Under the pieces are notes generated by a model. It worked only from the letters and a program-made list of their open reading frames with translations, was not told the origin of the DNA and did not search any database. From the IMG/VR virus record IMGVR_UViG_3300009376_000004: a DNA stretch of 20,000 nucleotides, one strand, 5' to 3'. This DNA comes from an uncultured virus (IMG/VR IMGVR_UViG_3300009376_000004). Lineage: Duplodnaviria; Heunggongvirae; Uroviricota; Caudoviricetes. The first letter of the stretch is position 1; every line of letters begins with the position of its first letter. Of this stretch, positions 1 through 19,090 are shown in pieces. The position numbers and the translations under genes were made by a program.

Positions 1-2009
1 GCACAGGTTTAGCTAGACAAGATCAAGATGTTCATATACCTATGAAGTCGGATTGGGATGAATGTAGATGGTGTAACGGAACAGGAGAAATTTCAACAGA
101 ATCAAAAGCAAGTGAAGATTGGCAACAGCATTTGCCAAAAGGTATGACAATAAGAGGTTATGAATGTCCTATCTGTTTCATGTCTATCAAATTTGAAAAG
201 GAATTTGGTGGAACGGGGAAAAATCTATACAATCACTTGTTAGAAAAACATGGTGTAGATGATTCTGAAGCAAAAGATATGGTACAAACAGCAAAGTCAA
301 ACGTTGAAGATTATGAAAAAGTATTCAAAGATTATGAATCGCCTTACACAGAATCAAAAGCAAATGAATATCTTCTTGACAAAGTATGTCCTAAATGTGG
401 TAGTGAGATAGGGGACGCAGAGGACGAGTTTGAAAATTCCTATTCTATAACCTGTCCTTTATGTAAGGAAACCATTAATCGTGATGATTATGATTTTACT
501 GCTTCGCCTGAATGGAAATTAGAGGGGGAATCAAAAGCAAATGAAGCATATCCAGATGCAGTTTGGGAAGAATGGTGGAATACAGATCAAACAGAAAAAT
601 CAGATTGGTTGAATTTTGCATTTGATAAAGGTATTTCGGATGAGATAGCCGAAGGAGCATGGGAACATTATATGGGAACTGAAGCAGATAGTAAATCTAA
701 TCAGAATATTAAAAATCTAAAACTTCGTAATCAAAAAAGACAATGGGGAAGACGAGGTGAAGCACTTCAAGATACAGAATATCCTAACCCAAAATATCAT
801 GGTAAATCACTAGAAGAATTATTAAAAATTAAAGATGAGTATTTTGGAGATGTTGGTAACTTAGATTTAGGAGATGATCCAGATATGTCAGATTATCACG
901 ATCTCATGTGGGAGATAGGTGTCTTACAAGGACTATATGGTCATGCTCATAAAACAGATGAAGGTCTAGGCGATTTTTTTAAAAAACTTTCAGGTAGAGG
1001 AGATAAAACTTGGGGTAGTGATCCTATAACTCATGGGGACTTTGAAGTAATGTGGAATAATGCAGGTGTTCAGCAAAGAATAAAATGGTTAGAAGATGTT
1101 CAGGGTAGTGCTGACGGATTACAAAATGAAGCATATGATAAATTGCCACAATGGATTCAGGTACAGTTATTTTATCATATAGGAGATCTTGATAAACATG
1201 AGGATTTACTTGAAACACCAACCATTAGTCTTGAATCATATGACTATTATTATCCAAAGAAAAATAAACCAAGAACGAAATACAGTGTTAATAAAGCCCA
1301 TAAAATTCGTAAGGGAACAGGCGAATTAACAAAAGATAATTTATTGAAACATATAAAGTCCGAAGGTACTTATGATCCAGAATCAAATAATAATTATAAT
1401 ACTTCTTCATCAATAAGAAATAAAACAGATCAATATCTACAAGAGTTAGAAAGTGAGGGTTGGATTGAACAGAAGATGCAGAGTAACAAATTGGTTTGGG
1501 TTCCTACTAGACATGGTAGTGGTAGGGTAGGAACAGTAGAAGCATGGGAACCAGAAGATAGAGGTGGAAATAATCCGGGTATGACGAATGAGATGATGTT
1601 AGAATATGCAAAACATATTTGGGACGTTGATGAAAGTTCAAAAGAACAAAGGATAAAACTTTTGGAGGATTTGGGTAATGCAGGTATAGGAAAAACTCTT
1701 GTTATGCTTTCCATGATGGACTTTAATTCACTAGGACAAAAAATTCAACAAGATTTGGCAAATGCTTTGGAAATGGATTTAGCGATGGATGAAAGAGATT
1801 TTGCTAAGAAAATTCAGGGTATAGAGGGCGGAAATGGATCAGGTAAGAGATATCATCAACAATGGATGAATGATGCAGACAAGATTGATTCGATAAAGTC
1901 CGAAGATATGACAAAAGATAAATTTCTGAAAAGAGCAAAGGCAATCGAGATAGAATATACTGACGAAGATCAATATAGGCGAATGTTTGAGCAGTTAAAA
2001 GATGATTAA
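1..2009 (+). CDS. Large modular protein (5'-truncated) with ESKA(N/S)E repeats, several Zn fingers, helical repeats and a wHTH-like module
   Basis: Frame 3 is open from position 3 (TGLARQDQDVHIP before the Met at 42), so the true start probably lies upstream. Contains CxxCxGxG, C2H2 (CPIC..HLLEKH) and CPKC..CPLC ribbon motifs, and ESKA(N/S)E three times. Confidence 0.85.
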   Translation, partial: TGLARQDQDVHIPMKSDWDECRWCNGTGEISTESKASEDWQQHLPKGMTIRGYECPICFMSIKFEKEFGGTGKNLYNHLLEKHGVDDSEAKDMVQTAKSNVEDYEKVFKDYESPYTESKANEYLLDKVCPKCGSEIGDAEDEFENSYSITCPLCKETINRDDYDFTASPEWKLEGESKANEAYPDAVWEEWWNTDQTEKSDWLNFAFDKGISDEIAEGAWEHYMGTEADSKSNQNIKNLKLRNQKRQWGRRGEALQDTEYPNPKYHGKSLEELLKIKDEYFGDVGNLDLGDDPDMSDYHDLMWEIGVLQGLYGHAHKTDEGLGDFFKKLSGRGDKTWGSDPITHGDFEVMWNNAGVQQRIKWLEDVQGSADGLQNEAYDKLPQWIQVQLFYHIGDLDKHEDLLETPTISLESYDYYYPKKNKPRTKYSVNKAHKIRKGTGELTKDNLLKHIKSEGTYDPESNNNYNTSSSIRNKTDQYLQELESEGWIEQKMQSNKLVWVPTRHGSGRVGTVEAWEPEDRGGNNPGMTNEMMLEYAKHIWDVDESSKEQRIKLLEDLGNAGIGKTLVMLSMMDFNSLGQKIQQDLANALEMDLAMDERDFAKKIQGIEGGNGSGKRYHQQWMNDADKIDSIKSEDMTKDKFLKRAKAIEIEYTDEDQYRRMFEQLKDD

Positions 2010-2019
2010 TTTTTAAGTA
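2010..2019 (+). promoter_or_regulatory. Archaeal TATA-like box upstream of the resolvase
   Basis: TTTTTAAGTA begins 29 nt before the TTG start at 2039; no SD visible. Confidence 0.5.
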
Positions 2020-2038
2020 AGCATGACAACTAGAATTA

Positions 2039-2476
2039 TTGCCAAACCGAAATAAGATAAAGGGAACAAATTTCGAGTATGAATGGATGTATTACTTGTT
2101 ATATCATCACTTTGACAATGTGAGAAGTTATGCAAGTAAGGGTGTTGCAGATGTAAGAAGTGTTCCACCAAAATGGGCTAAATCAACAATAGCGTTAGCA
2201 AGTCAATGTAAGAATACGAAGAAAAATGATTACATTGATCCAGCAGAAAGGAGAAGATTGGAAGCATATTCAAAAAAATACTCTTACTTGGTCGTAGAAC
2301 CATTTAAGATGAATAGAACTTGTTATGTCAAATTAGAACCTTGGAAACTAGACGGTAAAATAATGACACCAGAGCAGTTTTTGAAGAAATATTACGGAAT
2401 ATTTGCAGATACATGGAAAAGGCAAAGAACGAATTGGAAACATGGTGTTAAGCGACAACCTATTAATAGAGTATAA
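2039..2476 (+). CDS. hjc: Archaeal-type Holliday junction resolvase (Hjc-like PD-(D/E)xK nuclease)
   Basis: N..KG..FE.E, VRSYASKGVAD and QCK motifs match the Hjc pattern; TTG start. Confidence 0.75.
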   Translation: MPNRNKIKGTNFEYEWMYYLLYHHFDNVRSYASKGVADVRSVPPKWAKSTIALASQCKNTKKNDYIDPAERRRLEAYSKKYSYLVVEPFKMNRTCYVKLEPWKLDGKIMTPEQFLKKYYGIFADTWKRQRTNWKHGVKRQPINRV

Positions 2477-2502
2477 TTCTTTATTTATATAGAAATAGAT
2501 AT

Positions 2503-2535
2503 CTTTATATACTATTATGAGAGATAAGAATATGA
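2503..2535 (+). promoter_or_regulatory. TATA box plus 18-nt conserved element overlapping the start codon (copy 1)
   Basis: CTTTATATA at 2503 and TGAGAGATAAGAATATGA at 2518-2535; the same arrangement recurs at 12309-12341. Confidence 0.7.
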
Positions 2536-2708
2536 AGAATATTATAATTACTTATTGTGATATGTGTTCTCAACGAATCGTGAAAAATGGCGTTTATGAG
2601 ATAACAAAAATGCCCTTTAGCGTGAGAGGAGCAAAGAATGGATCAAAGGGTTTGATCTGTCGAAAGTGTTTCCAAGAAGTTGAACAAGTCATAGGTAAGA
2701 GGAGATAA
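2532..2708 (+). CDS. Small Zn-finger protein (CDMC..CRKC)
   Basis: Two CxxC pairs; ATG 2532 preferred over 2517 from TATA spacing and the duplicated cassette. Confidence 0.75.
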   Translation: MKNIIITYCDMCSQRIVKNGVYEITKMPFSVRGAKNGSKGLICRKCFQEVEQVIGKRR

Positions 2709-2710
2709 AA

Positions 2711-2917
2711 ATGGGAAAAACATATAGAAGGCATTATTGGGACTTTGATGAAAAATTAATTGCAGATGGCGTAAAATACGGACATGATTCAAAAAAAATA
2801 TGTGCATGGTGTCGTAGCAATAGATTAAACAAGAGAAATATCGAATTAGCAAAATTTGGTGGTGGTTCCGTAAGAGGAAATGCCGAGAAAGTAGTATTAC
2901 AAAAGGTGTATGGATAA
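2711..2917 (+). CDS. Hypothetical protein (H..CxxC)
   Basis: SD-like GGAGA upstream; TAATG coupling to the next gene. Confidence 0.7.
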   Translation: MGKTYRRHYWDFDEKLIADGVKYGHDSKKICAWCRSNRLNKRNIELAKFGGGSVRGNAEKVVLQKVYG

Positions 2918-3102
2918 TGAAAGATAATGAAATAGGAGTAATCGAGGACGTTTGTGGTCAATTAAATGATGTAGAGGGCGAATGGCAGAAACTCGTAGAA
3001 GAATGTATTGGCAGATTATTAAAGTTGATTGAAAAACCAAAGGATCGTGAATCAATAATTCGTAATATCACAAAACATATTCATACAGAGGCGAGGGGAT
3101 AA
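2917..3102 (+). CDS. Hypothetical protein
   Basis: Coupled 61-aa ORF in a gene run. Confidence 0.7.
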   Translation: MKDNEIGVIEDVCGQLNDVEGEWQKLVEECIGRLLKLIEKPKDRESIIRNITKHIHTEARG

Positions 3103-3106
3103 AAGA

Positions 3107-3241
3107 ATGAATCATAAACTTCTAGATATAGGTGATATTAATTATATCCTAAGGAAGCATTCAGATAGTATTCCAGAAGATGTAGTTAGAGATATTTATT
3201 TTAAATTATTAGAATATGTTCCGGTGGAGGAATTAGAATGA
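3107..3241 (+). CDS. Hypothetical 44-aa protein (not in ORF track)
   Basis: MNHKLLDIGDINYILRKHSDSIPEDVVRDIYFKLLEYVPVEELE; fills the gap, GAGGGG upstream, ATGA overlap with the next gene. Confidence 0.7.
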   Translation: MNHKLLDIGDINYILRKHSDSIPEDVVRDIYFKLLEYVPVEELE

Positions 3242-3906
3242 CTAAGAAAATAAAGATAACTAATCCAGATGATTTTTCGGTGTTTATTGATAATAAAGGT
3301 AATCAGGTTAATGATATAACAGAAAGTTCAAAGCAAGTAGGATATTGTTGCATTCCAAAAATGAGAGAACAATCTCCTGAATTTGACAAGAAGTTATGGA
3401 ATGAGTTAATCAGAATTGGAAAGGACGTGGAGAAAGATAGCGAACCAGATTTTGGTATTCTTGATCTTCCATTAGAATATGAAGTAGATGGTAAGAAAAA
3501 ATCAAAGTTGGACTTTGAAGATACCATGCCAGATAGATCTAGAATTAAAGTAAGACCTAATCCAATGATTGAAGTTTTTATTAATACGCTGAAACATTAT
3601 GGCATTGATGAAAGTCAGGTAAGGCAGATAAAAGAAGATATGTATATTGCAAGATATAGGTTATGGGATTTATTGGGAATGTATTATACAGGAGCTTTAT
3701 GGGGTGCAAAAGGTCAAATATTTGATTGTATAGAAAAGATGGTAAAATTATATATTGAGATGAAAGATGTAGGTGGATTCTTTTGGTTTTTGAGAGGACA
3801 TGACTTAGATGTCGAGGAACCAAAGCATTGTGATGATTGTATTAAATCGTATAAAGATTGGGTTGCAGAAATACCAAAAGGGAGGACAATGAATGATTAT
3901 GTATAA
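3238..3906 (+). CDS. Hypothetical protein with Cys/His motifs
   Basis: 222-aa ORF, GGAGG SD, HCDDC near the C-terminus. Confidence 0.8.
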   Translation: MTKKIKITNPDDFSVFIDNKGNQVNDITESSKQVGYCCIPKMREQSPEFDKKLWNELIRIGKDVEKDSEPDFGILDLPLEYEVDGKKKSKLDFEDTMPDRSRIKVRPNPMIEVFINTLKHYGIDESQVRQIKEDMYIARYRLWDLLGMYYTGALWGAKGQIFDCIEKMVKLYIEMKDVGGFFWFLRGHDLDVEEPKHCDDCIKSYKDWVAEIPKGRTMNDYV

Positions 3907-4351
3907 AGAAACATTAAAAATAAAAAATAAGAAATTGATTCCTAATTCATTTTACAGAACGTGGAAAATGTATGATGGCATTGAAAAGGGAGTGCGAATG
4001 AGAGAGATGACAAGACATGAATTAGCGAGGGAGGTTTTATTTAGAATGGTAGATAAGTTATCTCCAAAAGATAGACTTGATATTTTTAAAGATTTGACAA
4101 GTGTGTGGAGAAAATTGAATGATGTTTCAATTAACAACGCAGATAATTGGACTGATGAACAGCTTGCGATTGCAGAAATAATAGGAGTTTATTGTCATAT
4201 GTGTGGATATAATTGCAGACATGTAACAGATGAGGAACATGGTGAGGACTTTATGATTTGTAATAATGCCGATACACCAGCAGATAAATGTGAGCATTAT
4301 GGAATGGAAACAGAAGGTCTATCGTATTTTTTTAAGGAGATGAAAGAGTAG
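3893..4351 (+). CDS. Hypothetical protein with a C-terminal Zn-binding region
   Basis: CHMCGYNCRH..C..CEH; GGAGG SD. Confidence 0.8.
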   Translation: MIMYKETLKIKNKKLIPNSFYRTWKMYDGIEKGVRMREMTRHELAREVLFRMVDKLSPKDRLDIFKDLTSVWRKLNDVSINNADNWTDEQLAIAEIIGVYCHMCGYNCRHVTDEEHGEDFMICNNADTPADKCEHYGMETEGLSYFFKEMKE

Positions 4352-4438
4352 ATGTTCAAGTATTGTAAAAAATGTGTAGGTATTAGACAATTTTTGGGCG
4401 ATCCAAGAAAATGTGATGTATGTGGAGATGAAGGCTAA
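4352..4438 (+). CDS. 28-aa Zn-ribbon microprotein (not in ORF track)
   Basis: MFKYCKKCVGIRQFLGDPRKCDVCGDEG; abuts the previous stop and has a TAATG overlap with the next gene. Confidence 0.7.
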   Translation: MFKYCKKCVGIRQFLGDPRKCDVCGDEG

Positions 4439-5052
4439 TGGGTACTGATATTTATTTAAAATGGGATAAGATGAGTAAGAAAGATCGTGATGATCAGATT
4501 ACAGGTTGGAGAATTGATAAAGGAAATACAGGTTATCTAAGAGCAAGTATTGGAATGATACAAGAGAATGAATTTTTACGAAAGGTATTTCCAAAATGGG
4601 TTTGGCAACCTAATAATCCGAAATGTATTACTTGTGATGGTCAGGGAATATCAAAGGACTTTGATCAAAAGAGAGAATGGGATGACGAAAGAAATTGGTG
4701 TAGTGATTGTAAAGGTACTTGTGTAAAAGATGGATTAGACGGAGCAAGATTTGAATTTAATGACGAGTTTATGAAAAAATTAAGCATTTGGTCAAGATTA
4801 TATCTAGGTCACGCAATAATGGGAACGCCTATTGAAAGTTTGGATAGTGAAGAACAGAAAAGAGCAAATGGTATGATGAATACAGTTATGAAAGCAATAG
4901 GTGGTGGCATGGATAAGATAGAAGTATCAGAAGTAGGAGATGGTGATATATTTTGGAAGGCAGAATTTATTACAAATGTATTTCAATTTTGTAGATTAGG
5001 TTATGAGAAGGAGAAAGAGGGATTAAATCCGAGGGTGTATATATCATGGTAG
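4438..5052 (+). CDS. Viral hypothetical protein with an inserted DnaJ-type CxxCxGxG Zn finger
   Basis: CITCDGQG..CSDCKGTC; N-terminal MGTDIYL resembles a common phage family. Confidence 0.8.
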   Translation: MGTDIYLKWDKMSKKDRDDQITGWRIDKGNTGYLRASIGMIQENEFLRKVFPKWVWQPNNPKCITCDGQGISKDFDQKREWDDERNWCSDCKGTCVKDGLDGARFEFNDEFMKKLSIWSRLYLGHAIMGTPIESLDSEEQKRANGMMNTVMKAIGGGMDKIEVSEVGDGDIFWKAEFITNVFQFCRLGYEKEKEGLNPRVYISW

Positions 5053-5621
5053 AGGGAGATAAAGCATTCAAAGATTTTCCATTGGAACGTTGTTGGAAAT
5101 GCAAAAAGGAAACGAGAATTTTATTTCCTTTCAGAGCAATAGACATAGACAAAAGACCAAAGGGTATGAGTGTGAATGAATATCTAGGTAAAATGAAAAC
5201 CGAAGGTGGCGATATGGTTAAACTTTGTATAAGATGTAATCCGATCACAGTAAATTTAGGACTATTAACGGAGGATAGTATTATGAATATGACCGAAGAG
5301 CAAAAAGCAGGTATGATAAATTATACTCCACAGATAGCACATCTTAATATGAAGAAAGTATCGGATGTATCTTTTGATCTTGGTAATGGTATTCGAGATA
5401 TACCCAAAGGAGCAAGAGTTTCAGGGACGGAAGTATTAGCAAGTGCAAAGGCTATGGGACATAAAGTACGAGCAAGAGTGAAGATCGGTGGTAGAGAGAA
5501 AATAGTAACAGGTAGAAATAAAAAGGATTTACTTCGTCAGATAGAAATTGCAGGAGCAAAATTTATGATGTGGGAAAAAATGTTCGCACCATTAAAAAGA
5601 GAGGGGGTAAAATATGACTAG
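5046..5621 (+). CDS. Hypothetical protein with N-terminal Zn ribbon
   Basis: CWKC..CIRC; overlaps both neighbours. Confidence 0.8.
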   Translation: MVEGDKAFKDFPLERCWKCKKETRILFPFRAIDIDKRPKGMSVNEYLGKMKTEGGDMVKLCIRCNPITVNLGLLTEDSIMNMTEEQKAGMINYTPQIAHLNMKKVSDVSFDLGNGIRDIPKGARVSGTEVLASAKAMGHKVRARVKIGGREKIVTGRNKKDLLRQIEIAGAKFMMWEKMFAPLKREGVKYD

Positions 5622-5985
5622 AAAGATAACTTGTGTTAGCTGTAATCACAAATTTGTTAAGAGTAAGAAGGGTGGTCTTATGGAAATGTTTCATGATATG
5701 AAATATTGTTTAATATGTGTCAGATATGATTATTGGTATCATGAATCACTGAGAAAGAAATTCATTAAGATAAGAAAACATAAAGGAGTTGAATATTTGA
5801 CCATAACAAAAGCAGGAATTTTAGATGGAATCAAAGAAGGTCAAGGGATAAAAATGACTGATAAAGAGATACAAGATGTCGTGGATAAGCAGAAAAATCC
5901 AAAGATAACAGTTAAGGACTTTAAGAAAAATTATGTCGAGCATATATATGCAAAAATGAAAGAGGAAGAAAAAATTGAAATGTAA
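5614..5985 (+). CDS. Hypothetical protein with N-terminal Zn finger
   Basis: CVSC..CLIC; GAGGGGG SD. Confidence 0.8.
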   Translation: MTRKITCVSCNHKFVKSKKGGLMEMFHDMKYCLICVRYDYWYHESLRKKFIKIRKHKGVEYLTITKAGILDGIKEGQGIKMTDKEIQDVVDKQKNPKITVKDFKKNYVEHIYAKMKEEEKIEM

Positions 5986-6106
5986 AAATTGTAATCATCA
6001 TAAATATGAACATACAGGCACATTTGGTTTTGTAAAACAAGAAGATCTATGTCCATGTTGTAATCTTCATAAGGACTTTGAAAAATTAAAGGTGTTGAAA
6101 AAATGA
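5975..6106 (+). CDS. 43-aa Cys/His-rich microprotein (not in ORF track)
   Basis: TTG start; KCKNCNHHKYEH..CPCCNLH; fills the gap. Confidence 0.65.
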   Translation: MKCKNCNHHKYEHTGTFGFVKQEDLCPCCNLHKDFEKLKVLKK

Positions 6107-6121
6107 AAGAGGTAAAAAAAT

Positions 6122-6286
6122 ATGACTAAATGTTTCATAAAACAATGTGATGGTAAAGCAAAATATACGATTAAAGATGCAGAACAATATCCAAAAAAGT
6201 ATAATGGTAAGAAAATATGTGAAGATTGTAATAGAGCAAGAACTTTATTAAAGGTTGAACCAGAGGAGGATAAAGATGGTTTGTAA
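6122..6286 (+). CDS. 54-aa Zn-finger microprotein (not in ORF track)
   Basis: MTKCFIKQC..ICEDC; GAGGT SD upstream. Confidence 0.7.
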   Translation: MTKCFIKQCDGKAKYTIKDAEQYPKKYNGKKICEDCNRARTLLKVEPEEDKDGL

Positions 6287-6488
6287 TAATCAATGTAAAT
6301 TATTTAAATCGAAAAGACCAGTAGGTGGTCAGCGATATAATGATGGTCAGAAAAGATGTTCAGTATGTATTGAATGGATAAGGTGGGATGGTAAATATTG
6401 TCCATGTTGTGGTTACATTCTTAGATGTCATCCAAGAAAACCAAGAGGTAAGATGGTGTTAAAACCAATGGAGGTTAGATATAGATGA
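6276..6488 (+). CDS. Cys-rich protein resembling a Nitrososphaeria conserved hypothetical family
   Basis: C...C...K..RP.G.QRY..GQKRC..C...I.WDG..CPCCGY.LR..PR pattern recalled from Nitrosopumilus proteins; ATG 6276 follows GGAGG. Confidence 0.75.
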   Translation: MVCNNQCKLFKSKRPVGGQRYNDGQKRCSVCIEWIRWDGKYCPCCGYILRCHPRKPRGKMVLKPMEVRYR

Positions 6489-7057
6489 GTGATATCGCAA
6501 TAATGATTGGAGTAAGTGGATCAGGCAAGTCATATAAAGCCAAAGAAGTGCAGAGGAGAGCATTAGAATTGGGAGTAAATGAACCTACTGTAATATGTTC
6601 GACAGATAAATTCATTGAACGAGAAGCCAAAGAAAAAGGAATTACCTATCAAGAATGTATGAATATGATTCAAGAGGAAAAAAGATTCGGAGAAATAACA
6701 GGAAAATTCTATGATGAAATAGAAGAATGTATTAGAAACGATGTTAATATGGTAATTGATAGAACAAATCTGACAAAGGGTGGTAGGATAGCATTGATAA
6801 CTAAACTTAACGAAATACATAAAAAGTATGGTAAAACCATGCAAAGTATGGCTATGTGTCTTAGCGTTAAGAGAGAATTAATAAATATGAGATTAAAGGA
6901 AAGAGAGGATCGAGGAGAAAAGAAAATGGATCCTAAAATTATAGATCAACAAATTCAACGATTAGAATTACCGACAAAAGATGAAGGCTTTGATCGAGTT
7001 AGCGTTGCAGGGGACTTTGATGAAAAGACCGGATTATACAAGGAGGTGAAAGCATAA
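6485..7057 (+). CDS. P-loop kinase, AAA_33 / polynucleotide kinase-like
   Basis: Walker A GVSGSGKS, CSTD, VIDRTNL, RLKER lid and LELPTKDEGFD. Confidence 0.85.
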   Translation: MSDIAIMIGVSGSGKSYKAKEVQRRALELGVNEPTVICSTDKFIEREAKEKGITYQECMNMIQEEKRFGEITGKFYDEIEECIRNDVNMVIDRTNLTKGGRIALITKLNEIHKKYGKTMQSMAMCLSVKRELINMRLKEREDRGEKKMDPKIIDQQIQRLELPTKDEGFDRVSVAGDFDEKTGLYKEVKA

Positions 7058-7059
7058 AA

Positions 7060-7209
7060 ATGAATGGAAGTATATGGCAATGTTCTGTGTGTGAAGCACA
7101 ATTACCAGATGACGAATACATTGAAACACGAAAAAAGAAACATCTGTTAATGCACAATAATAAAGGAACAATGTCAAAAGAACAAACATTTTCCCTAAAG
7201 GTGAAATAA
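7060..7209 (+). CDS. 49-aa C2H2 Zn-finger microprotein (not in ORF track)
   Basis: WQCSVC..KKHLLMH; GGAGGTGA SD upstream. Confidence 0.7.
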   Translation: MNGSIWQCSVCEAQLPDDEYIETRKKKHLLMHNNKGTMSKEQTFSLKVK

Positions 7210-7404
7210 TTGAATGATAAAATACTAGATGGTATCTTATTGTTAGATCAAAAGAGGTGTCCAGAATGTGATTCTCCATTAAGTTTTTGGTCAATGCCAG
7301 ATTATGATGACGATCTTAATCTACAAGGTAGAATAAGACGATGGTGGCACTTTGAACATAATAAAGAAAGTAATTGTCCGAGAATGTGGGATCATGCCAA
7401 CTGA
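7210..7404 (+). CDS. Small Zn-binding protein (CPEC..H..C)
   Basis: TTG start after GGTGA; CPECDSPL..HFEH..CP. Confidence 0.7.
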   Translation: MNDKILDGILLLDQKRCPECDSPLSFWSMPDYDDDLNLQGRIRRWWHFEHNKESNCPRMWDHAN

Positions 7405-7534
7405 AAAGAAATTTTGTAATATTTGTTTAGTAGTAGGAAAGAAATTATATGAGGTAGAAAGATTAGATCTATGTTATAAATGCAAGGCAAGAGTTAAAGC
7501 AGGATTAAGATCTAAAACTTATCACAACAAGTAG
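7394..7534 (+). CDS. Small Zn-finger protein (CNIC..CYKC)
   Basis: ATG 7394 overlaps the previous gene; two CxxC pairs. Confidence 0.65.
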   Translation: MPTEKKFCNICLVVGKKLYEVERLDLCYKCKARVKAGLRSKTYHNK

Positions 7535-7771
7535 TCATTTATACATATTAGTATCGTCAGGTTTTTGTTTTGTATCTGACCAATATGTTAAGTAAGCCTT
7601 TAATTTTTCCTCATCAAATTTATTTTTTAATAACATCATTACAATTTCTATTTCTGTAAAGCTTGGTTTCTCTTTATTCAAAGCATCAATAAATGCAGAA
7701 TCAACTGCTGTGTAAATATCATCTATTTTTTTTGAATATGGTAATTCTTCGTCAGGTTTATCTTCACTCAT
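7535..7771 (-). CDS. Hypothetical acidic protein
   Basis: MSEDKP start coupled (TAATG) to the matrixin stop; convergent with the + strand run. Confidence 0.7.
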   Translation of the reverse strand: MSEDKPDEELPYSKKIDDIYTAVDSAFIDALNKEKPSFTEIEIVMMLLKNKFDEEKLKAYLTYWSDTKQKPDDTNMYK

Positions 7772-8580
7772 TAGCATATCCTACTATTACCACAGTCGAT
7801 CTCTAAGCATTGAATATCACATTGTCTAGGAATATACTTCGGAGTAGGGAATCCGAATCCATCATCTCCATAAATTCTAATCATCATTTTAAGATCGAGG
7901 TCGGTTACTTCTTTAACTTCTCCCTCAAATACATCAATGGATCCATACATGATTGGTGAGTAATCACATTCTACTTCTCTACAATCAGAAGCAACATAAT
8001 AATGCTCTAAACCAAATCCATGTCCTAACTCATGCAGGACGATATTACGAAGATCATTTTCAGGAATTTCTTTCCATTCTGTTTTCACACCTATTTCAGC
8101 TTCATTGATATTTTCTCCTAAACTGATTGATACTTTACGTTCTACTGTATTCATATCAACTTCAACCCAATAATAATATCTTACACTAGATGAAAAATCA
8201 AATCCTGTTCTACCAACAGATTCATCCTCAACACCATAAGGATAGTTAATGAATATTGTGCAATCTGGATAATCTGAAACATCGGCAATTCCATGTTGTG
8301 ACCAATCATATTCAGTAGTGGTCATATTCCAATTACCACCTGTTGCATTGACCAATTTAGTTTGCCATTCATTTATTGCTGAATGAGTAACCTTAGAGAG
8401 AATATCTATCCGAGGTTCTACTTCTGGATCAGGGTACATTATACAAATTGATGGATTGGTCTTATGATAAACACCTATTGTTCTGAAATAATCTCCATAG
8501 GCATTACTGATAAACCCAGCAAATGCTATTCCTACTATTAACCAAACAATAATCCAAAGTATCACTACTTTCATAGACAA
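7771..8580 (-). CDS. Secreted or membrane-anchored matrixin-like (M10/metzincin) zinc metalloprotease
   Basis: Hydrophobic N-terminal signal; HELGHGFGLEH zinc motif; SPIMY Met-turn. Confidence 0.85.
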   Translation of the reverse strand: MSMKVVILWIIVWLIVGIAFAGFISNAYGDYFRTIGVYHKTNPSICIMYPDPEVEPRIDILSKVTHSAINEWQTKLVNATGGNWNMTTTEYDWSQHGIADVSDYPDCTIFINYPYGVEDESVGRTGFDFSSSVRYYYWVEVDMNTVERKVSISLGENINEAEIGVKTEWKEIPENDLRNIVLHELGHGFGLEHYYVASDCREVECDYSPIMYGSIDVFEGEVKEVTDLDLKMMIRIYGDDGFGFPTPKYIPRQCDIQCLEIDCGNSRIC

Positions 8581-10130: not shown

Positions 10131-11033
10131 ATGGGTTTTAGTGCTAAAGATCGAGAAAGAATATTAAGATATTTAATTGCAAAGAGTTTAACAGTAGATG
10201 GTGCTATCAAGATTCTTGGAAGAGCATCATCAAGTGTATCTGTATTATTTGGTAGCGACTTTCATGTAGGAAGTATCTATTCACTTTGTAGTCCTGATCC
10301 AGTAAGGGAAGATGGATTACCTATAAAACAAACTATACAGCAGAAGGCATTATGGGGTATCTTTGAAAAGGTAATTGATAGAATCACAAAGAAACCAAAA
10401 GTGTTTGTAGTAAATGGAGAACCTATTGATGGTGGTAATCGAAGAAGTCTTGGTAGAGGTTGTTGGACAACACACTTAGGAGATCAGATTGATGACTTTT
10501 GTAAAATTATAAAACATATTCCTTATGATCATTTACTTATGACGAGAGGATCACCTTATCATGTAGATTTGGATGGTACAAACTTTGAAGAAATAACAGC
10601 GAAGCAACTTAACGCAGATCATTACAGAGCATTTGGTGGAAGTGGTAAAACAGATTATCAAGTTAATTTTGAAATCAATGGAAAGATATTCAATGCAACA
10701 CACCATGTAGGATTTGCAAGATGGTGGCAGTATAGACCAACAGCATTAGCACAGGAAATGGTCAAGATGCACTTTGATCATTCAAAGAGAAAATTCCATA
10801 CAGATGTCATGGTAAGAAGCCACGTTCATTATTATTGTCAAGTTAAATTTTTGAACACATTATCATTCACGACACCAGCTTGGAAATTACCAGATCCATT
10901 CATGTATAAATCAGGATTACCAATGATGCCAGATCTTGGTATGGTTGAAGCCATTGTCGAGAGTAATGGTGATATTGAGATAAATCCAATAGTTGAGGAT
11001 ATAGACATAGAACCAATGGTGAAGCATTACTAA
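10131..11033 (+). CDS. Calcineurin-like metallophosphoesterase
   Basis: SDFHVG, NGEPIDG, RGSPYH, THH and RSHVH motifs. Confidence 0.85.
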   Translation: MGFSAKDRERILRYLIAKSLTVDGAIKILGRASSSVSVLFGSDFHVGSIYSLCSPDPVREDGLPIKQTIQQKALWGIFEKVIDRITKKPKVFVVNGEPIDGGNRRSLGRGCWTTHLGDQIDDFCKIIKHIPYDHLLMTRGSPYHVDLDGTNFEEITAKQLNADHYRAFGGSGKTDYQVNFEINGKIFNATHHVGFARWWQYRPTALAQEMVKMHFDHSKRKFHTDVMVRSHVHYYCQVKFLNTLSFTTPAWKLPDPFMYKSGLPMMPDLGMVEAIVESNGDIEINPIVEDIDIEPMVKHY

Positions 11034-11314
11034 TGACCATAAAGATCAAGATGGAGATTCCAAGTTGGGCGGAAGAAAATCTAAAGTCCAACTCAATGCC
11101 TACTATTAGAGATCATGTAAAAGCATTGATCAAAGAATTACCAAAAGGTTATGAATTTCCTGTAATAGTAATACATAAACAGATGATAAAAAAGAAAGGT
11201 TATGCTGATCTTAATTCAAGAAGAACGAGAGAGGCAATACAAATACTCCGAGAGAATGACTTCATAAAAGAAGTTGCATGGAGAAATAGAGTGAAATATT
11301 TTACGAGGTGTTAA
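11033..11314 (+). CDS. Probable winged-helix DNA-binding protein
   Basis: Basic 93 aa; RRTREAIQILRENDFIKEV..YF wing pattern. Confidence 0.6.
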   Translation: MTIKIKMEIPSWAEENLKSNSMPTIRDHVKALIKELPKGYEFPVIVIHKQMIKKKGYADLNSRRTREAIQILRENDFIKEVAWRNRVKYFTRC

Positions 11315-12028: not shown

Positions 12029-12304
12029 TTGAACCCAAGTTTTAGGTACTGGCAAGGCTTTTGGAATTGGTATGATAGACATATTACAGAATCACTATTT
12101 CTAACAGCTGTCATTATCTATATTCAGATACCTCACATGATTTGGAATGCTGATTTGTATTTGGAAATGGGTATGATAAGTAGAGTGAATCCTATATTGG
12201 ACTTTATGCTATATGGTGTGGATTTGATTGAAGTGTTTCCAATGATCAATATAGGAATGTTGATTTATTCAAGAATTAGAAGAAATAGTGTTAATAAATC
12301 TTAA
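12029..12304 (+). CDS. Membrane protein resembling a Nitrososphaeria conserved hypothetical
   Basis: FWNWYDRH.TESL..QIPHM..LDFMLYGVDLIE; TTTAAA about 30 nt upstream of the TTG start. Confidence 0.7.
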   Translation: MNPSFRYWQGFWNWYDRHITESLFLTAVIIYIQIPHMIWNADLYLEMGMISRVNPILDFMLYGVDLIEVFPMINIGMLIYSRIRRNSVNKS

Positions 12305-12341: not shown

Positions 12342-12436
12342 TGAAAATGAGATGTAGTTTCTGTGCAACACAATTTTGTAGTACAGATACTTGTAAATGC
12401 AGATGTCATAAATCAACGTGGGTAAGATATGAATAG
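12338..12436 (+). CDS. 32-aa CxxC..CxCxCH microprotein (not in ORF track)
   Basis: MMKMRCSFCATQFCSTDTCKCRCHKSTWVRYE, directly after the promoter cassette. Confidence 0.65.
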   Translation: MMKMRCSFCATQFCSTDTCKCRCHKSTWVRYE

Positions 12437-13133
12437 ATATTTTGGAGAAAACCATGTAGATGAAAAAAATGTGTCAAATAAGGCACTTACATCATGTATT
12501 GAAAGAAATAAAAAAATAGCGAAAAGGACAATTGCATTCTTTACAAAGCAACCTGATCCTTATAAAAAATGGCTTAATGGAAAGATGGAGCAGTTTAGAG
12601 ATATTGACAGAAAGTTATCATATAAAGTGGCAAATATGTTTGAGTGTGAGATCAAAGAATGTCATAATAATACGATAAAAATATTAGCAAAGACAGATGA
12701 GTTCAAGTTTTACATGGGATGGTATTTGGCAAAAGGTCTTGGAATGGCAGAACATTCATGGTTTATTTCAAAAGGCGGAAATGTAATAGATCCAACATTG
12801 GCAGTTCCGAGTAAGGCATCATTGAAGAAAGATGGAACAGTTGAATATCAACTGAAAGGACTTAAACCAAAGGATTCGTTGATATATCAAGCACAGGGAT
12901 CATTATATTCAGGGGTAGAAATTCCAAGAGAATTGATGGCAAAAATCTTTGCGAGAAAGTTATATCTACAAAATAAGCATGGTGTATTCCAACATAGATG
13001 GCTACAAGAGTATTATCTGATTAGTGAATTGGGATTATCTGTGGAAGAAGCAGTTTTCCATACAGGTGAGGGAATAGAAGGTAAAGATAAGTTCCAAGAG
13101 GACTTTGAGAGGATAGTAAATGACAAGACATAA
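12429..13133 (+). CDS. Hypothetical protein with a possible transglutaminase/papain-like Cys-His-Asp triad
   Basis: KECHNN..GW..EHSW..VIDPT..YSGVEIP. Confidence 0.6.
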   Translation: MNRYFGENHVDEKNVSNKALTSCIERNKKIAKRTIAFFTKQPDPYKKWLNGKMEQFRDIDRKLSYKVANMFECEIKECHNNTIKILAKTDEFKFYMGWYLAKGLGMAEHSWFISKGGNVIDPTLAVPSKASLKKDGTVEYQLKGLKPKDSLIYQAQGSLYSGVEIPRELMAKIFARKLYLQNKHGVFQHRWLQEYYLISELGLSVEEAVFHTGEGIEGKDKFQEDFERIVNDKT

Positions 13134-13488
13134 CTGTTCATTCTGTGGCTTATATTTTTACAGTAAATATAGGCTATCTAGTCATGAGTTATTCTTTCAT
13201 GGAAAATATATTTCTGAACAAACGACCATTGGTGAATTACGTCATTTATCATGGGAAAATCAAGATATGATTATGGTCGAACATCGTAAATTGACAAATG
13301 CACTCAAAAGACAGGAAAATAGAGTGAAACATATCAAAGAAACTAAGAAATTTAGAGATAAGCGTAATCGTAGATGGGCGGAATATAGGGAGGTATTACA
13401 ATTTGAATTGAGAAAGCAAGATGCGATGAAAAGGTCATTAAAACTATTCGAGAAGGAAGCCAGAGCAAAGGGGGTAGAAGTTGGTTAA
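13120..13488 (+). CDS. C2H2 Zn finger plus coiled-coil protein
   Basis: CSFCG..F..L.SHELFFH; basic helical tail. Confidence 0.75.
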   Translation: MTRHNCSFCGLYFYSKYRLSSHELFFHGKYISEQTTIGELRHLSWENQDMIMVEHRKLTNALKRQENRVKHIKETKKFRDKRNRRWAEYREVLQFELRKQDAMKRSLKLFEKEARAKGVEVG

Positions 13489-13729
13489 ACCACATTCATA
13501 CTCAATATCGGATAATAATGCTAAATTCTTAAAGTCCTTAGCAAAGGAACAGGGTAGAAGTGTGTCAAATACTCTTGATAGAATACTAGACCAAATTAGA
13601 GATTCAGGGAGAGATAAGCATGGACGTAAGAATTTTGTAACCTTAAATGGACTATCACCAATCTGTCAGCATGAATCAATAGATCCTAAGGACAATATGT
13701 GTAGAGATTGCTATCAAATAATTAATTAA
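13481..13729 (+). CDS. Ribbon-helix-helix (CopG-like) regulator with a C-terminal Cys/His motif
   Basis: HSYSISD..FLKSLAKEQGRSVSNTLDRIL; CQH..CRDC. Confidence 0.7.
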   Translation: MVKPHSYSISDNNAKFLKSLAKEQGRSVSNTLDRILDQIRDSGRDKHGRKNFVTLNGLSPICQHESIDPKDNMCRDCYQIIN

Positions 13730-14498: not shown

Positions 14499-14551
14499 CT
14501 TAAATACTCTCTTAAATCCTTAAATATATCACGATTCTATGACCTTTTGAT

Positions 14552-14806: not shown

Positions 14807-14841
14807 AATATACTTAAAATGCAGATATACTTGCATAAAGT

Positions 14842-15567
14842 ATGGTAAAGAGGAAACCAAATTGTGTTATAAGGGACACTTTCTTTAAGGAAACCTTACA
14901 TCACGATATTCCCTATTTTTCAGAAATGGAGATAGAAGAATGGAAACACAAATGGACACCGAAGAAAGTAAGGCGTAAAAAATTTGGTTATGTTACTTAC
15001 AAACTTATATCCGAATCTCGTAGTTTTCCTGATTCAAGTTTTGAACATAAGGCATTAACAATAGCATTAAGACAATGGGGTTTGAGAACAAAAGATATTA
15101 GATTCAAAAGAGTAAAGGGTAAAGCAGATCTAGTTGTAAAATTCGCAACAAGAGAGGAAGATAAATATTTTAAAGATAAACCATCAGTTCTAGCATATGC
15201 GTATTTCCCAAATGGTGGTGAGATAGGAGGAGATATGACATTCAATGATTCAATATGGTGGTCAAAAGATGGAGCATCAAGAAATGCACATGAGTTAATG
15301 CCAGAACAATATCCATCGAATACAAAGACGAGATTAAAGACATACAATCTAGTCCATGTAATGCTACATGAAGCTGGTCATGCGTTAGGATTGAAACATC
15401 ATCCTAGTTGTAAGAAATGTATTATGTACCCATATTATAGCGGAAAGGTTTTATTGCATGAGCATGATGTTCTACGAATACAAACATTCTATGGTAAAAG
15501 GTCTATTAGTAAGCAGGTTATTGATTATTTTAGACGAAGAATGATGAGAAAGTGGTCTAATGCCTAG
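14842..15567 (+). CDS. Matrixin (M10A/MMP-like) zinc metalloprotease without a signal peptide
   Basis: VLAYAYFP, GGDMTFND..W, NLVHVMLHEAGHALGLKH and CIMYPYY Met-turn. Confidence 0.9.
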   Translation: MVKRKPNCVIRDTFFKETLHHDIPYFSEMEIEEWKHKWTPKKVRRKKFGYVTYKLISESRSFPDSSFEHKALTIALRQWGLRTKDIRFKRVKGKADLVVKFATREEDKYFKDKPSVLAYAYFPNGGEIGGDMTFNDSIWWSKDGASRNAHELMPEQYPSNTKTRLKTYNLVHVMLHEAGHALGLKHHPSCKKCIMYPYYSGKVLLHEHDVLRIQTFYGKRSISKQVIDYFRRRMMRKWSNA

Positions 15568-15853: not shown

Positions 15854-15924
15854 TATATTAATATTGAAATGCTTTACTTAAATACTCAAAATATATTTAA
15901 TAACACCTTAATCTAACTACTGTC

Positions 15925-16236
15925 ATGCCGGGAAGAGGAAGACATTGGAAAGTAGGAGGACTAAAAGATTCAACAGTTACATCAGCAGACATTGTAGATG
16001 CAACAATAGTTTCAGCAGATATTAAAATTGCTGTAAGCGATATACAAACTGGTAATGGATCAGCACAAGCATTTGCTCATGGATTAGGAGTAGCACCAAC
16101 AAAAGTTATTTGTTGTGTATATCAAGATGCTAACGAATCAACACCAACAACTGTTACAGAAGGTTCAATTACTGCAAACAATGTAAGTCATACAGTCACA
16201 AGCGGAGCAAAATACAAGGTATTGGTGATAGCTTAG
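15925..16236 (+). CDS. Putative virion structural/fibre-associated protein
   Basis: Ser/Thr/Ala/Val-rich; VTSADIVDATIVSADI repeat; AHGLGVAPTKV. Confidence 0.6.
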   Translation: MPGRGRHWKVGGLKDSTVTSADIVDATIVSADIKIAVSDIQTGNGSAQAFAHGLGVAPTKVICCVYQDANESTPTTVTEGSITANNVSHTVTSGAKYKVLVIA

Positions 16237-16794
16237 ATGATTTTTTTAACAGAATCAGATAGCAATCAGATGCCAAAAGATATTGATCCAAATAATAACA
16301 TTTGTGCAGTATTAAAGAATGAGATTACAGGAGAGAAAAGATGGTGGTTTGGATCAAACATTGTAACCAATGATGGAGATATTTATTATGCTAAAAAGAG
16401 TGCGGCAACACCGGGAATTGCCACAAACGAAAATTTTGTACAAGGAAGAGCTGAATTAAGAACAGGAACAGTAACACCAGCAAAAACTGATACTTATCAA
16501 CAAGTAACAACACCTGTAACAGCTTCAAGAAAAACAATAGAATCAAACTATCCTAAAACAGATGATAGTGATACAGATAATTCAGGTAGAGGAGCTGACG
16601 CAGTTTCTTACAAATATTATTGGAATACTTCAGCATTTAATGCAACAGGTATTCTAGGTGGTTGTATTCATGACAATGCATCACCCGGAAATTCTACTAA
16701 ACTTTTAACTCATTGGACTTTTGCGGCTTCATTCAGTAAGACAGCAAATGATACCTTAACACTATTCGTCAATCATACGATGAACGGTGTCTAG
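16237..16794 (+). CDS. Putative tail/baseplate structural protein
   Basis: NIVTNDG near the N-terminus and KTANDTLTL at the C-terminus, typical of tail-associated beta proteins. Confidence 0.6.
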   Translation: MIFLTESDSNQMPKDIDPNNNICAVLKNEITGEKRWWFGSNIVTNDGDIYYAKKSAATPGIATNENFVQGRAELRTGTVTPAKTDTYQQVTTPVTASRKTIESNYPKTDDSDTDNSGRGADAVSYKYYWNTSAFNATGILGGCIHDNASPGNSTKLLTHWTFAASFSKTANDTLTLFVNHTMNGV

Positions 16795-16799
16795 TCCGA

Positions 16800-16961
16800 T
16801 TGTCTAAACCAATAACAATGTCTGGTATTTTCAGAATATTAGAAAGAATTGGTATGGGATTTCCTAAAGGTAAATCAGGTCTTAATGATAAAGTAAGATT
16901 CGAGGAAAAAATTAGTATTATCTTAAAGTCCGAAGATGGAAAGATCAAGGAGAAACAATAA
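16800..16961 (+). CDS. 53-aa hypothetical protein (not in ORF track)
   Basis: (M)SKPITMSGIFRILERIG..KSEDGKIKEKQ; TAATG overlap with the fibre gene. Confidence 0.6.
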   Translation: MSKPITMSGIFRILERIGMGFPKGKSGLNDKVRFEEKISIILKSEDGKIKEKQ

Positions 16962-19090
16962 TGGCACGAAAAGGTTATGGTAGAGCAGATTCATTAGTTT
17001 CAATAGGAACATATCCTGACGATGGTAGTTCACCAGTTGGAACAGATGAATGGAATAAGAATCCAAAGACCGATGGAATTTTTGGATTTGCTAAATCAAC
17101 AGCAGGGATATCATCAAACGGAATTACTGTAACAGATTCATATGTTGAAGTAACCGATGCTGGAACAATTCATAAGATATTATCACAAACAACAGCGTTA
17201 TCAACAACCTATTATGGAAGCGGAACTGATGGAGCTAGCACTTCAATAAAATCATTCGCAGAGGGAGATTTAATTTATGTAATCAAAGCAAATGGAGTGG
17301 GAACAGTAACATTAAATCATCAACAATCAGGTGTGACAGAAGGTAAGATAAACACATTATCAGGAGGAAATATAACACTAGATGAAAACGTTCCTAAAAT
17401 ATTCATGTGTAGAAATAAAGATCAAGCAGGTAATCTAGAATGGTTTGAATATGGTGGTGGTGTGGTAACAACGCCTACTGATATTACAGTAGCAGATACA
17501 ACCGACACTACTTGTTTCCCAGCTTTATTTGAATCGGCAACAGGCGATTTGGAACCAAAGACAGATGCAGGTATAACGTATAATGCAGGAACAGGAGTTT
17601 TAACTGCAACAGGATTTGCAGGACCATTGACAGGTAATGTAACAGGTAATGCAAGTGGAAGTTCAGGAAGTTGTACAGGTAATTCAGCGACAACAACAGC
17701 TTTAGCAAATGCTAGAACAATAGGAGGAACATCTTTTGATGGAACAGCTAATATTGCAGTAGCACTATCAGCAACAGCAACTGCATTGGCAACAGCAAGA
17801 ACTATTGGTGGTGTATCTTTTGACGGAACAGCAAATATTAACTTGCCGGGAGTAAATGCTTCAGGCACACAAGATACAAGTGGAACGTCAGCAGTAGCAA
17901 CAACAGTTACAATATCAGATAATGAATCAACGAATGAAAGTAATCTATTGACATTTACATCAGGTGGAGCTTCAACAGGAAATATAGCATTAGAATCCGA
18001 TGGTGATTTGAATTATAATCCATCAACAGGTCAATTAGCTTCAACAAAAGTTTATGGTCTATCAGAATTAAGAACAGGTGGAAACTTAGTCTTAGGTGGA
18101 GATCTAGATGCAACGACAAGTGCAACAGATGTAGATTTAATAGATAATAATGCAAGTGCATTAAGTTTTGATTCAGCAGGTAAAGCTGGAATATTGCAAT
18201 TAGTCACAACTGACGGAAGTGAAAAAGTAACCATGTCAGGTGATCTAGAAATTACAGGTGGTTTAACAGTAAGTGGAACAACAACCACAATAAACTCTAC
18301 AACTTTAACAGTTGATGATAAGAATATAGAATTAGCATCAACAGGAAGTCCATCAGATGCAGGAGCTAACTTGGGTGGAATTACATTAAGGGGAGATACA
18401 GACAAGACAATAATTTGGGATAATGCAAATGATAATTGGACTTCTAATCAAGATTGGAATATAGCATCAGGTAAAGTATTCAGAATAAACAATGCAAATA
18501 CATTAAGTGCAACAGCATTGGGAAGTGCAGTAGTAGGATCAAGTCTTACATCAGTAGGAACTATTGCAACAGGAGTTTGGAATGGAACAGCAGTAGCAGA
18601 TTCTTATATAGCTAGTGCTTCAACATGGAATGCTAAATTAGCAACAACCTTAACATCAGCACAATTATTTGTTGGAAATGGATCAAACGTTGCAACAGGT
18701 GTAGCTATGTCAGGTGATATTGCTATTAGTAATGCAGGTGCAACTACAATTCAAGCAGGTGCAGTAGATATTGCAATGCTTTCAGCAACAGGCACAGCAA
18801 GTTCATCAACATATCTTAGAGGAGATAACAGTTGGCAAGCTATATCAAGTGGATTCACAGCAACAGCAGATGATGACTTGGACTTTGTTGGAGATTATGA
18901 TATTGAAGATTTACAAAGAATTTGTTTTGAAGTACAAAGCACTGGATATACACTAAACGCAACTCATAATGAAAATAGAACAGGTGAAAGTCAAATGTTC
19001 GTAAGAACTATTGATTCTAATAACGAAGGACTTTTCATTAGATTAAAAAAGAATGGATCGAGTAACTACGAAGAAATTCAGATAGCATAG
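16961..19090 (+). CDS. Tail fibre-like virion protein
   Basis: 709 aa, G/T/A/S-rich; ARTIGG.SFDGTANI twice; GDLEITGGLTVSGTTTTINSTTLTVDDKNIEL and SSLTSVGT modules. Confidence 0.8.
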   Translation: MARKGYGRADSLVSIGTYPDDGSSPVGTDEWNKNPKTDGIFGFAKSTAGISSNGITVTDSYVEVTDAGTIHKILSQTTALSTTYYGSGTDGASTSIKSFAEGDLIYVIKANGVGTVTLNHQQSGVTEGKINTLSGGNITLDENVPKIFMCRNKDQAGNLEWFEYGGGVVTTPTDITVADTTDTTCFPALFESATGDLEPKTDAGITYNAGTGVLTATGFAGPLTGNVTGNASGSSGSCTGNSATTTALANARTIGGTSFDGTANIAVALSATATALATARTIGGVSFDGTANINLPGVNASGTQDTSGTSAVATTVTISDNESTNESNLLTFTSGGASTGNIALESDGDLNYNPSTGQLASTKVYGLSELRTGGNLVLGGDLDATTSATDVDLIDNNASALSFDSAGKAGILQLVTTDGSEKVTMSGDLEITGGLTVSGTTTTINSTTLTVDDKNIELASTGSPSDAGANLGGITLRGDTDKTIIWDNANDNWTSNQDWNIASGKVFRINNANTLSATALGSAVVGSSLTSVGTIATGVWNGTAVADSYIASASTWNAKLATTLTSAQLFVGNGSNVATGVAMSGDIAISNAGATTIQAGAVDIAMLSATGTASSSTYLRGDNSWQAISSGFTATADDDLDFVGDYDIEDLQRICFEVQSTGYTLNATHNENRTGESQMFVRTIDSNNEGLFIRLKKNGSSNYEEIQIA
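17711..17839 (+). repeat. Tail-fibre peptide repeat, 28-aa period
   Basis: ARTIGGTSFDGTANI (17711-17755) and ARTIGGVSFDGTANI (17795-17839), synonymously diverged. Confidence 0.85.

Follow-up and report, generated by a model that had tools for sequence, protein, structure and literature searches.

The window analysed here is a stretch of 20,000 nucleotides (nt) from an uncultured tailed virus (IMG/VR record IMGVR_UViG_3300009376_000004), and our subject is an octamer, GGACTTTR (YAAAGTCC on the other strand), that is dispersed through its genes. Placed by its shared genes, the window belongs to a Marthavirus-like tailed virus. Open reading frame (ORF) 16961-19090 has tail-fibre and virion matches, and the window also encodes two zincin proteases and one kinase-like ATPase. 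The closest complete relative, G412 (77.9 kb, with terminal repeats), has 18 of the 40 window genes as well as genes for RadA, CobS/CobT-like, Cas4-like and TET/JBP proteins; the available text of PMC7678222 names radA and cobS as typical genes of Marthavirus, among viruses of Nitrososphaeria. Unlike the window, G412 does not carry the word. The best genome matches of the gene at 12029-12304 (+) are in Ca. Nitrosopelagicus (74-80%), and this genus of marine ammonia-oxidising archaea is therefore the probable host.

GGACTTTR occurs at 17 sites in the window, 12 on the + strand and five on the − strand (the latter all TAAAGTCC), corresponding to 0.85 per kb (850 per Mb). The original prediction had listed these sites and estimated about one by chance. 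Every coordinate and strand matched on recount, and the expectation was close: dinucleotide shuffles contained 0.90 ± 0.97 sites (17 reached in 0 of 200), and synonymous-codon shuffles a mean of 1.11 and a maximum of 5 (n = 1000). The enrichment thus survives codon shuffling; the gene list used for it had one mis-framed ORF, 19100-19999, which contains no GGACTTTR site. Once protein repeats were damped, GGACTTT was the highest-ranked dispersed 7-mer (17 versus 1.8 expected). All 17 sites are coding, as had been stated, with + sites encoding x-Asp-Phe and − sites x-Lys-Ser. Spelling with rare codons was likewise found on both strands, but the codons named earlier were incomplete, ATG and TGG also preceding GAC at two + sites. 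Contigs of runs X2 and X3, which are separate assemblies from the same study as the window's possible source run, differed from the window by 0 letters across 16 of the 17 sites (18880 was not among the pieces listed), so that a consensus artefact is ruled out. Inspection by eye revealed neither a flanking consensus nor a hairpin around the sites.

To determine which sequences carry the word, we counted it in 459 sequences, namely the window and 458 partly redundant loci. An excess at p<0.001 was found in nine: the window, L111 (7 sites in 18.9 kb), L085 (7 in 14.9 kb), L121 (3 in 2.8 kb), four copies of G002, and L445. The remaining 450 viral and host loci held 397 sites against 273 expected, a 1.46-fold background far below the 17-fold excess of the window, and G412 has just 4 sites in 77.9 kb. 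None of the 45 host-genus genomes is enriched (14-60 sites per 0.4-1.3 Mb; host assigned by gene likeness), which speaks against the suggested likeness to uptake sequences. The word is real and lineage-specific, being shared by close relatives of the window. The copies of G002 and L445 were set aside. A common GGACYWW family with G002 was rejected: its main word is AGGWCCA (30 versus 3.0), neighbours are not emptied there, and its GGACTTTR copies spread over five frames. L445, an unrelated RadA-bearing virus with 5 GGACTTTG in 5.6 kb (198-4373), appears to be a chance case among 459, the overlapping L444 having 0 in its other 9.8 kb. The words TATTCCA (G412) and TCAAGTG (G004) vanished after repeat damping. 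Relaxed GCACTTTR counts were largely repeated orthologous sites, and relaxed GGTCTTTR was weakly raised (5 sites, p=0.008 uncorrected for 16 tests).

Site by site, the word sits in diverse proteins. ORF 42-2009 contains 1037..1044 (+, GGACTTTG, Gly-Asp-Phe), 1354..1361 (−, GGACTTTA, Ile-Lys-Ser on +; the Ser codon is AGT in L111) and 1718..1725 (+, GGACTTTA, Met-Asp-Phe). Site 1894..1901 (−, GGACTTTA, Ile-Lys-Ser) is retained in L111, in a stretch where protein identity is 33%. Then follow 2740..2747 (+, GGACTTTG, Trp-Asp-Phe, ORF 2711-2917), 3510..3517 (+, GGACTTTG, Leu-Asp-Phe), 4246..4253 (+, GGACTTTA, Glu-Asp-Phe) and 4656..4663 (+, GGACTTTG, Lys-Asp-Phe), the last three retained in L085 (with protein identity of 57% at 4246). 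Site 5916..5923 (+, GGACTTTA, Lys-Asp-Phe) lies in ORF 5614-5985, 6073..6080 (+, GGACTTTG, Lys-Asp-Phe) in the short ORF 5975-6106, 43 codons called by hand, and 7012..7019 (+, GGACTTTG, Gly-Asp-Phe, retained in L085) in the AAA_33/polynucleotide-kinase-like ORF 6485-7057. Further along are 11082..11089 (−, GGACTTTA, Leu-Lys-Ser, ORF 11033-11314, retained in L121 and L081), 12199..12206 (+, GGACTTTA), 13100..13107 (+, GGACTTTG, Glu-Asp-Phe, retained in L121 and GGAGTTTG in L085) and 13530..13537 (−, GGACTTTA, Leu-Lys-Ser, in the RHH-like ORF 13481-13729, retained in L085, L121 and L082). The list ends with 16924..16931 (−, GGACTTTA, Leu-Lys-Ser, ORF 16800-16961, retained in L085 and L111) and 18880..18887 (+, GGACTTTG, Leu-Asp-Phe) in the tail-fibre-like ORF 16961-19090.

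Overall, L085 retains 6 of 9 alignable sites against a background 8-mer identity of 30%, and L111 2 of 4 against 14%, small numbers in both cases. Sites are also lost and gained. In the X5/X6 strain site 3510 is gone through a double change at 3513 and 3514 that turns Phe into Leu (among 40 of 792 differences listed). At 12199 the window and L082 read LDFML, 12 other relatives LDFFL and 2 LDW, indicating that the word was completed by an amino-acid change; in L111, a change from NDKILD to NDKVLD also completes a site. Lineage contigs outside the window region were not found via RadA, resolvase or other alignments, nor in 401 family and 45 genus genomes, with the sole exception of a more distant tail contig, G303:C100, that has 0 GGACTTTR in 14.5 kb. 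Single-protein scans with two window proteins returned no matches.

The word's arrangement bears on its proposed likeness to Chi and KOPS. Chi, KOPS and DNA uptake sequences are dispersed, asymmetric short words inside genes. A polar recombination or translocation signal of the Chi or KOPS kind, acting with the viral RadA, would fit the presence of RadA and a Cas4-like nuclease in G412 and the 12:5 strand lean in the window. However, this lean is not significant (p=0.14) and falls to 14:10 over independent sites pooled from the window, L111, L085 and L083; spacing is random (coefficient of variation 0.98, biggest gap 4070), and the frame restriction described below would be left unexplained. 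GGACTTTR thus differs from Chi, KOPS and uptake sequences in being non-polar, absent from the host and frame-restricted, and we consider a signal of this kind the most improbable of the explanations weighed here.

The window also avoids many C-rich words, which we take to be restriction sites. GGCC, CCWGG, GASTC and GAGAC are all at 0 (expected 5.2, 7.1, 13.8 and 12.9), GCGC, CAGCC and GCWGC are at 0 each, CTSAG is at 2 versus 11 and GGWCC at 1 versus 3.9. This pattern points to heavy restriction pressure. Within GGACTTTR, a C placed at position 3, 5 or 6 would create GGCC, GGACC or GACTC; the loss of site 3510 in the X5/X6 strain hit positions 4 and 5 together, so that no GGACC was made. The word could be a by-product of restriction-site avoidance and Asp-Phe codon-pair habits, together with a lucky extreme among many windows. 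The near absence of nine C-rich words, the 1.46-fold background excess and the apparently chance cluster in L445 would suit such an origin. Against it, G001, G003, L086 and L118 have much of the avoidance without the word, a neutral model with forbidden words was 59 log-units worse, and 5 of the 7 L111 sites are absent from the window, against 0.64 expected for all L111 sites. This explanation is largely refuted, and we regard it as very improbable.

We next asked in which reading frames the word occurs. Chances were counted as all places where silent changes could give the word under the existing protein. In the window 12 of 14 x-Asp-Phe and 5 of 16 x-Lys-Ser chances are filled, but none of 11 in the other four frames (17/30 versus 0/11). 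The two filled frames are those with word positions 1, 4 and 7 at third codon positions. In L111, 5 of 20 chances are filled in these two frames versus 2 of 13 elsewhere. Thirteen control sequences showed no difference (24/696 versus 17/308, p=0.17 against codon expectation). In a separate count, 26 of 44 control sites fall in the two frames compared with 17 of 17 in the window. At equilibrium, a selected word should fill any frame that the protein permits; the filling of two frames out of six therefore argues for a position-specific mutational drive.

The neighbours of the word behave in a similarly selective manner. Where positions 1 and 4 are silent and the remaining six letters match the word, the combinations GC, AC, GT and AT number 22, 0, 0 and 8 in the lineage (de-duplicated) against 24, 68, 34 and 100 in 16 control sequences. 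The ratio of intermediates to double neighbour is thus 0:8 versus 102:100 (p=0.007), a depletion of T-for-C neighbours as in a footprint of the mismatch endonuclease Vsr. Genome-level counts over five partly orthologous lineage sequences (65.9 kb), with expectations from control density, gave 34 GGACTTTR versus 4.1 expected. Both single-transition neighbours are emptied (AGACTTTR 1 versus 10.7, GGATTTTR 2 versus 7.0), while the double neighbour AGATTTTR is intact (15 versus 15.7) and the position-2 transition GAACTTTR is normal (6 versus 6.7). The double neighbour AGATTTTG stands unfilled at 1796..1803 (+), a real exception already noticed near 1794, and at 3447..3454 (+), likewise in L085. 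Silent single neighbours that are left comprise seven at positions 2, 3 and 6 and one at positions 1/4, a transversion. Examples in the window are 930..937 (+, GGACTATA, position 6), 5462..5469 (−, GTACTTTA, position 2), 6240..6247 (+, GAACTTTA, a position-2 transition) and 292..299 (−, TGACTTTG, the position-1 transversion), all unfilled. In an unbiased scan of C-versus-T contexts, AAAGTC[C] (40:3) and GGA[C]TTT (40:13) lead the contexts of their lengths. Judging missing neighbours from shuffles alone was dropped as undiagnostic, because selection at equilibrium lowers neighbours too; the double-neighbour and frame tests were used instead. Together, the frame and neighbour patterns point to position-specific mutational drive over selection of the whole word. 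Hence the original prediction that selection acts on the DNA rather than the protein holds in part: the effect is at the DNA level, as seen from the codon shuffles, the rare codons on both strands, the retention in relatives and the absence from hosts, but selection itself is doubtful with two of six frames filled and two neighbours emptied.

Codon Markov models were fitted to 68 de-duplicated chances from the window, L111, L083 and L082, omitting L085 as mostly orthologous. The models are simple, with proteins fixed and a single transition ratio tried at 2, 4 and 10. The log-likelihood (lnL) was −243.3 for the neutral model and −198.0 and −192.5 for whole-word selection at equilibrium and away from it. 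A ~50-fold boost of transitions at positions 1 and 4, combined with weak retention (S about 1.5), raised it to −184.6; letting all positions be weakly retained improves this best model. The margin of the drive at positions 1 and 4 over selection (ΔlnL 7.8) was reached in 0 of 400 bootstrap simulations under selection. Removing position 1 or 4 cost ~20 units, adding position 2, 3 or 6 cost 3.5 to 5.4, with a cost of 6 units also obtained for position 2, and the pair (1,4) ranked first among all 28 position pairs. Positions 1 and 4 are G:C pairs with their cytosines on opposite strands, and a drive at target cytosines, one per strand, is a second feature of a Vsr footprint, found here in the pooled fits and weak in the window alone.

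These observations suggest a footprint written by repair rather than a signal kept by selection. Our preferred explanation, which we hold tentatively and with a little less than even confidence, is that GGACTTTR/YAAAGTCC is the footprint of a Vsr-like, very-short-patch T-to-C repair ratchet, in which restriction sites block some of the exits. Its targets would be two cytosines, one at position 4 of the top strand and the other facing G1 on the bottom strand. A Vsr-type endonuclease would nick the T strand of T:G mismatches in the context of the word, and short-patch repair would restore C. Such mismatches could come from replication errors or from heteroduplex between co-infecting strains, and a partner cytosine methyltransferase would probably mark both cytosines. 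Near-sites one transition off would be converted to the word, and sites may persist partly since C at position 3, 5 or 6 makes GGCC, GGACC or GACTC, which are nearly always avoided. As the hosts are without the footprint, the enzyme might be virus-encoded, elsewhere in the genome, although this step is weaker. The word itself would need no function. The more specific proposal, that the lineage encodes a mismatch repair system directed at two staggered cytosines within an asymmetric site of 8 bases, and that gene conversion driven by it in replication and recombination has rewritten the genome 17-fold, even through amino-acid changes, appears to us on balance unlikely, while keeping an appreciable probability.

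Several points weigh against the repair ratchet. When the data were fitted apart, L111, L083 and L082 supplied a margin of +6.1 over non-equilibrium selection, while that of the window was +0.5 and that of L085 −0.2. Any change at positions 1 and 4 (−183.7) fits as well as transitions only (−184.6), so that transitions, and with them T:G specificity, are not singled out, and the two positions were selected after inspection of the data. Zero intermediates occurred in 10.6% of simulations under the best selection model. The change that completed site 12199 fell at position 8, which the ratchet does not cover. In the accessible part of 10.1101/070839 the Vsr footprint of E. coli is small (+26% CCWGG) and palindromic, and Xu et al. 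(PMC5861425), in the text available, take site conservation as a sign of selection; conservation is present here too. The window yielded no gene for a methyltransferase or a Vsr-like protein, nor one for a primase or polymerase, and lineage sequence beyond the window region was not recovered. A protein of Vsr fold is present in G412, a virus without the word. This 139-residue protein has DUF559 look-alikes (0.96) and a Vsr/RAP fold, with structure comparison to Vsr 1cw0 giving Z 9.5 (rmsd 3.5, 107 aligned), but RAP scores higher (11.0) and Bax1 ties (9.5). Foldseek listed no Vsr for it, a sequence search of solved structures gave no match, and profile comparison with a host Vsr was weak (probability 17.6). 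Since Vsr-fold proteins occur in wordless viruses, they show only that the part is available. In favour of the ratchet, Vsr is found in the host genus in 3 of 45 genomes, each time near a C5 methyltransferase, and C5 methyltransferases in 10 of 45, most of these genomes being partial.

As the chief alternative, the word may be a cis-signal under selection that a viral protein specific to the lineage reads, most plausibly the start site of a primase-polymerase or a site for a packaged internal DNA-binding protein (e.g. the product of ORF 42-2009). Selection would still be short of equilibrium, with sites one transition away filled first. The presence of the word on both strands, the retention of sites in relatives, the amino-acid changes that complete sites (LDFFL to LDFML; NDKILD to NDKVLD in L111) and the gain in fit from weak retention at all positions are consistent with a signal, which moreover equals the ratchet fit in the window alone. 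Related viruses with their own CCGG-containing words (G006, L006, G410) encode a Prim-Pol, and the site of the NrS-1 primase is 8 bases long in the text seen of PMC8718748. Prim-Pol recognition sites (NrS-1 TTTGGTTA/GTG; PMC8718748) resemble GGACTTTR in being short, asymmetric and usable on either strand. However, a selected site should be frame-independent, and both the window and the G412 ORFs compared with Pfam (72 of 117) yielded neither a primase nor a polymerase; the G412 scan returned no methyltransferase either. A signal also explains the frame and neighbour rules poorly: seven silent single neighbours remain at positions 2, 3 and 6 versus 3 filled in those frames (P(<=3)=0.002 under the best selection fit), and AGATTTTR is not lowered. 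Random spacing with a gap of 4.07 kb argues in the same direction. For the winged helix-turn-helix (wHTH), RHH and zinc-finger proteins of the window, named earlier for binding assays, we found no evidence that they read GGACTTTR. We give a selected signal a substantial, though minority, share of probability; if true, the word would be the site of a new viral DNA reader.

Close kin of the repair ratchet is an explanation without Vsr, in which a methyltransferase or other modification protects both cytosines. C-to-T loss would be resisted, or the marked strand would serve as template in mismatch repair, as in Elhai's ratchet for the HIP words of cyanobacteria. The best fit to the window alone has loss suppressed at positions 1/4/7 and gain left unboosted, and related viruses have Dcm, Dam, Mom and TET/JBP genes. 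Elhai's ratchet saturates near one site per kb in the portion available of PMC4390886, and the window has 0.85 per kb. The pooled fits, on the other hand, favour boosted gain, and by rough arithmetic blocking only C-to-T gives ~3- to 9-fold occupancy compared with ~70- to 300-fold fitted. Elhai's model addresses palindromes and MutSL repair, and no modifying gene was found for the lineage. Protection by modification alone therefore seems to us improbable.

How does the repair ratchet compare with known systems? In E. coli, Vsr acting at Dcm sites performs context-dependent T-to-C conversion (PMC12907096, 10.1101/070839), and its turning CTWGG into CCWGG is the proposed cause of the CCWGG excess (10.1101/070839, citing Bhagwat and McClelland 1992), as far as the accessible texts go. 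Of the known systems this very-short-patch footprint is the nearest in mode of working. The likeness lies in enrichment via T-to-C at near-sites and in two cytosines on opposite strands. Here, however, the target is an asymmetric 8-mer, the excess is 17-fold rather than 1.26-fold, the carrier is a virus and not a host, and an enzyme for the word was not found. HIP1 (GCGATCGC) and the alternate HIPs are octamers at about one per kb in cyanobacterial genes, with rare codons, conserved sites and a proposed methylation-linked ratchet (PMC4390886, PMC5861425, both available in part). The lineage shares with them conservation beyond the codon background, but GGACTTTR is non-palindromic, viral, not periodic at window scale and confined to two of six frames, compared with all frames for HIP. 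ScmA/VsrA of Caulobacter offers an 8-base cytosine-methylation motif, YGCCGGCR, with an unlinked DUF559 Vsr-like nuclease; it differs in being a palindrome on a bacterial chromosome with known enzymes, although the activity of VsrA is itself predicted (PMC12907096, in the text available). When other viral loci were scanned for this two-cytosine signature, none gave a dispersed case of equal strength. No paper with GGACTTTR or YAAAGTCC was found in the literature searched, most subscription papers being outside its coverage.

A word in excess in a genome is commonly taken for a selected signal, and in the case of HIP1 the debate between function and a repair ratchet continues. The pattern of filled frames and emptied neighbours provides a simple test separating selection from a ratchet, and its outcome here points to a ratchet. 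If the ratchet holds, an enzyme pair for marking and repairing cytosines, with an asymmetric target of 8 bases, would operate in the viruses that infect the chief ammonia oxidisers of the ocean, and two bases are named to check in long reads. A repair system encoded by the lineage would place very-short-patch-type repair in an archaeal virus, its specificity being readable from frame and neighbour statistics alone.

Other features of the window and its relatives were noted. Zincin proteases and small genes at 7535-8580 (−), 12029-12304 and 14842-15567 are common to many viruses of these hosts. Region 12429-13133 has no family match and is present in word-bearing relatives but was not found in G412; its Cys, His and Asp motifs, seen by eye, presumably resemble those of transglutaminase-fold proteins. 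For ORF 5046-5621 the ESM Atlas gave no match above 0.86. ORF 42-2009, L111 1-2424 and G412 1140-7829 encode long acidic zinc-finger proteins in which an ESKA-x-E motif recurs (3 copies in the window, 7 in L111, 6 across three G412 ORFs); these proteins may be protease-processed internal head polyproteins. The X5/X6 strain is missing 177 bases between two ESKA-x-E repeats (349 to 527) and, from 1525 to 1823, a further 297 bases. In G412, genes for a ParB-like protein, a TET/JBP oxygenase and a P-loop kinase are clustered (L301 8671-11842), possibly as a DNA hypermodification module. An excess of GGTGGTGG at 19099-20000 of the window derives from a glycine-rich tail protein and is not a dispersed signal.

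Near-total avoidance of many C-rich words was also observed in L085, L111, G001-G003, G412 and L309-L370, the set differing from virus to virus, and is not seen in host loci. The window (5 versus 1.3), G006, L006, G410, G005 and L101 keep CCSGG or have it in excess, where most related viruses have none; it is strongest in the Prim-Pol carriers G006 (CCGG 157 versus 34) and G410. G002 (L126 12227-13216) and L101 (12499-13497) encode related C5 methyltransferases (43%), and AGGWCCA, a site avoided by most others, is enriched in both (30 versus 3.0 and 11 versus 1.2). Restriction-modification islands with Vsr occur in the host genus at L477 4452-10584, L479 6557-8804 and L480 136-2640; in L477 a C5 and an amino-methyltransferase are paired, as in asymmetric-site systems. 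The patchy distribution of these host islands matches the avoidance of restriction words by the viruses.

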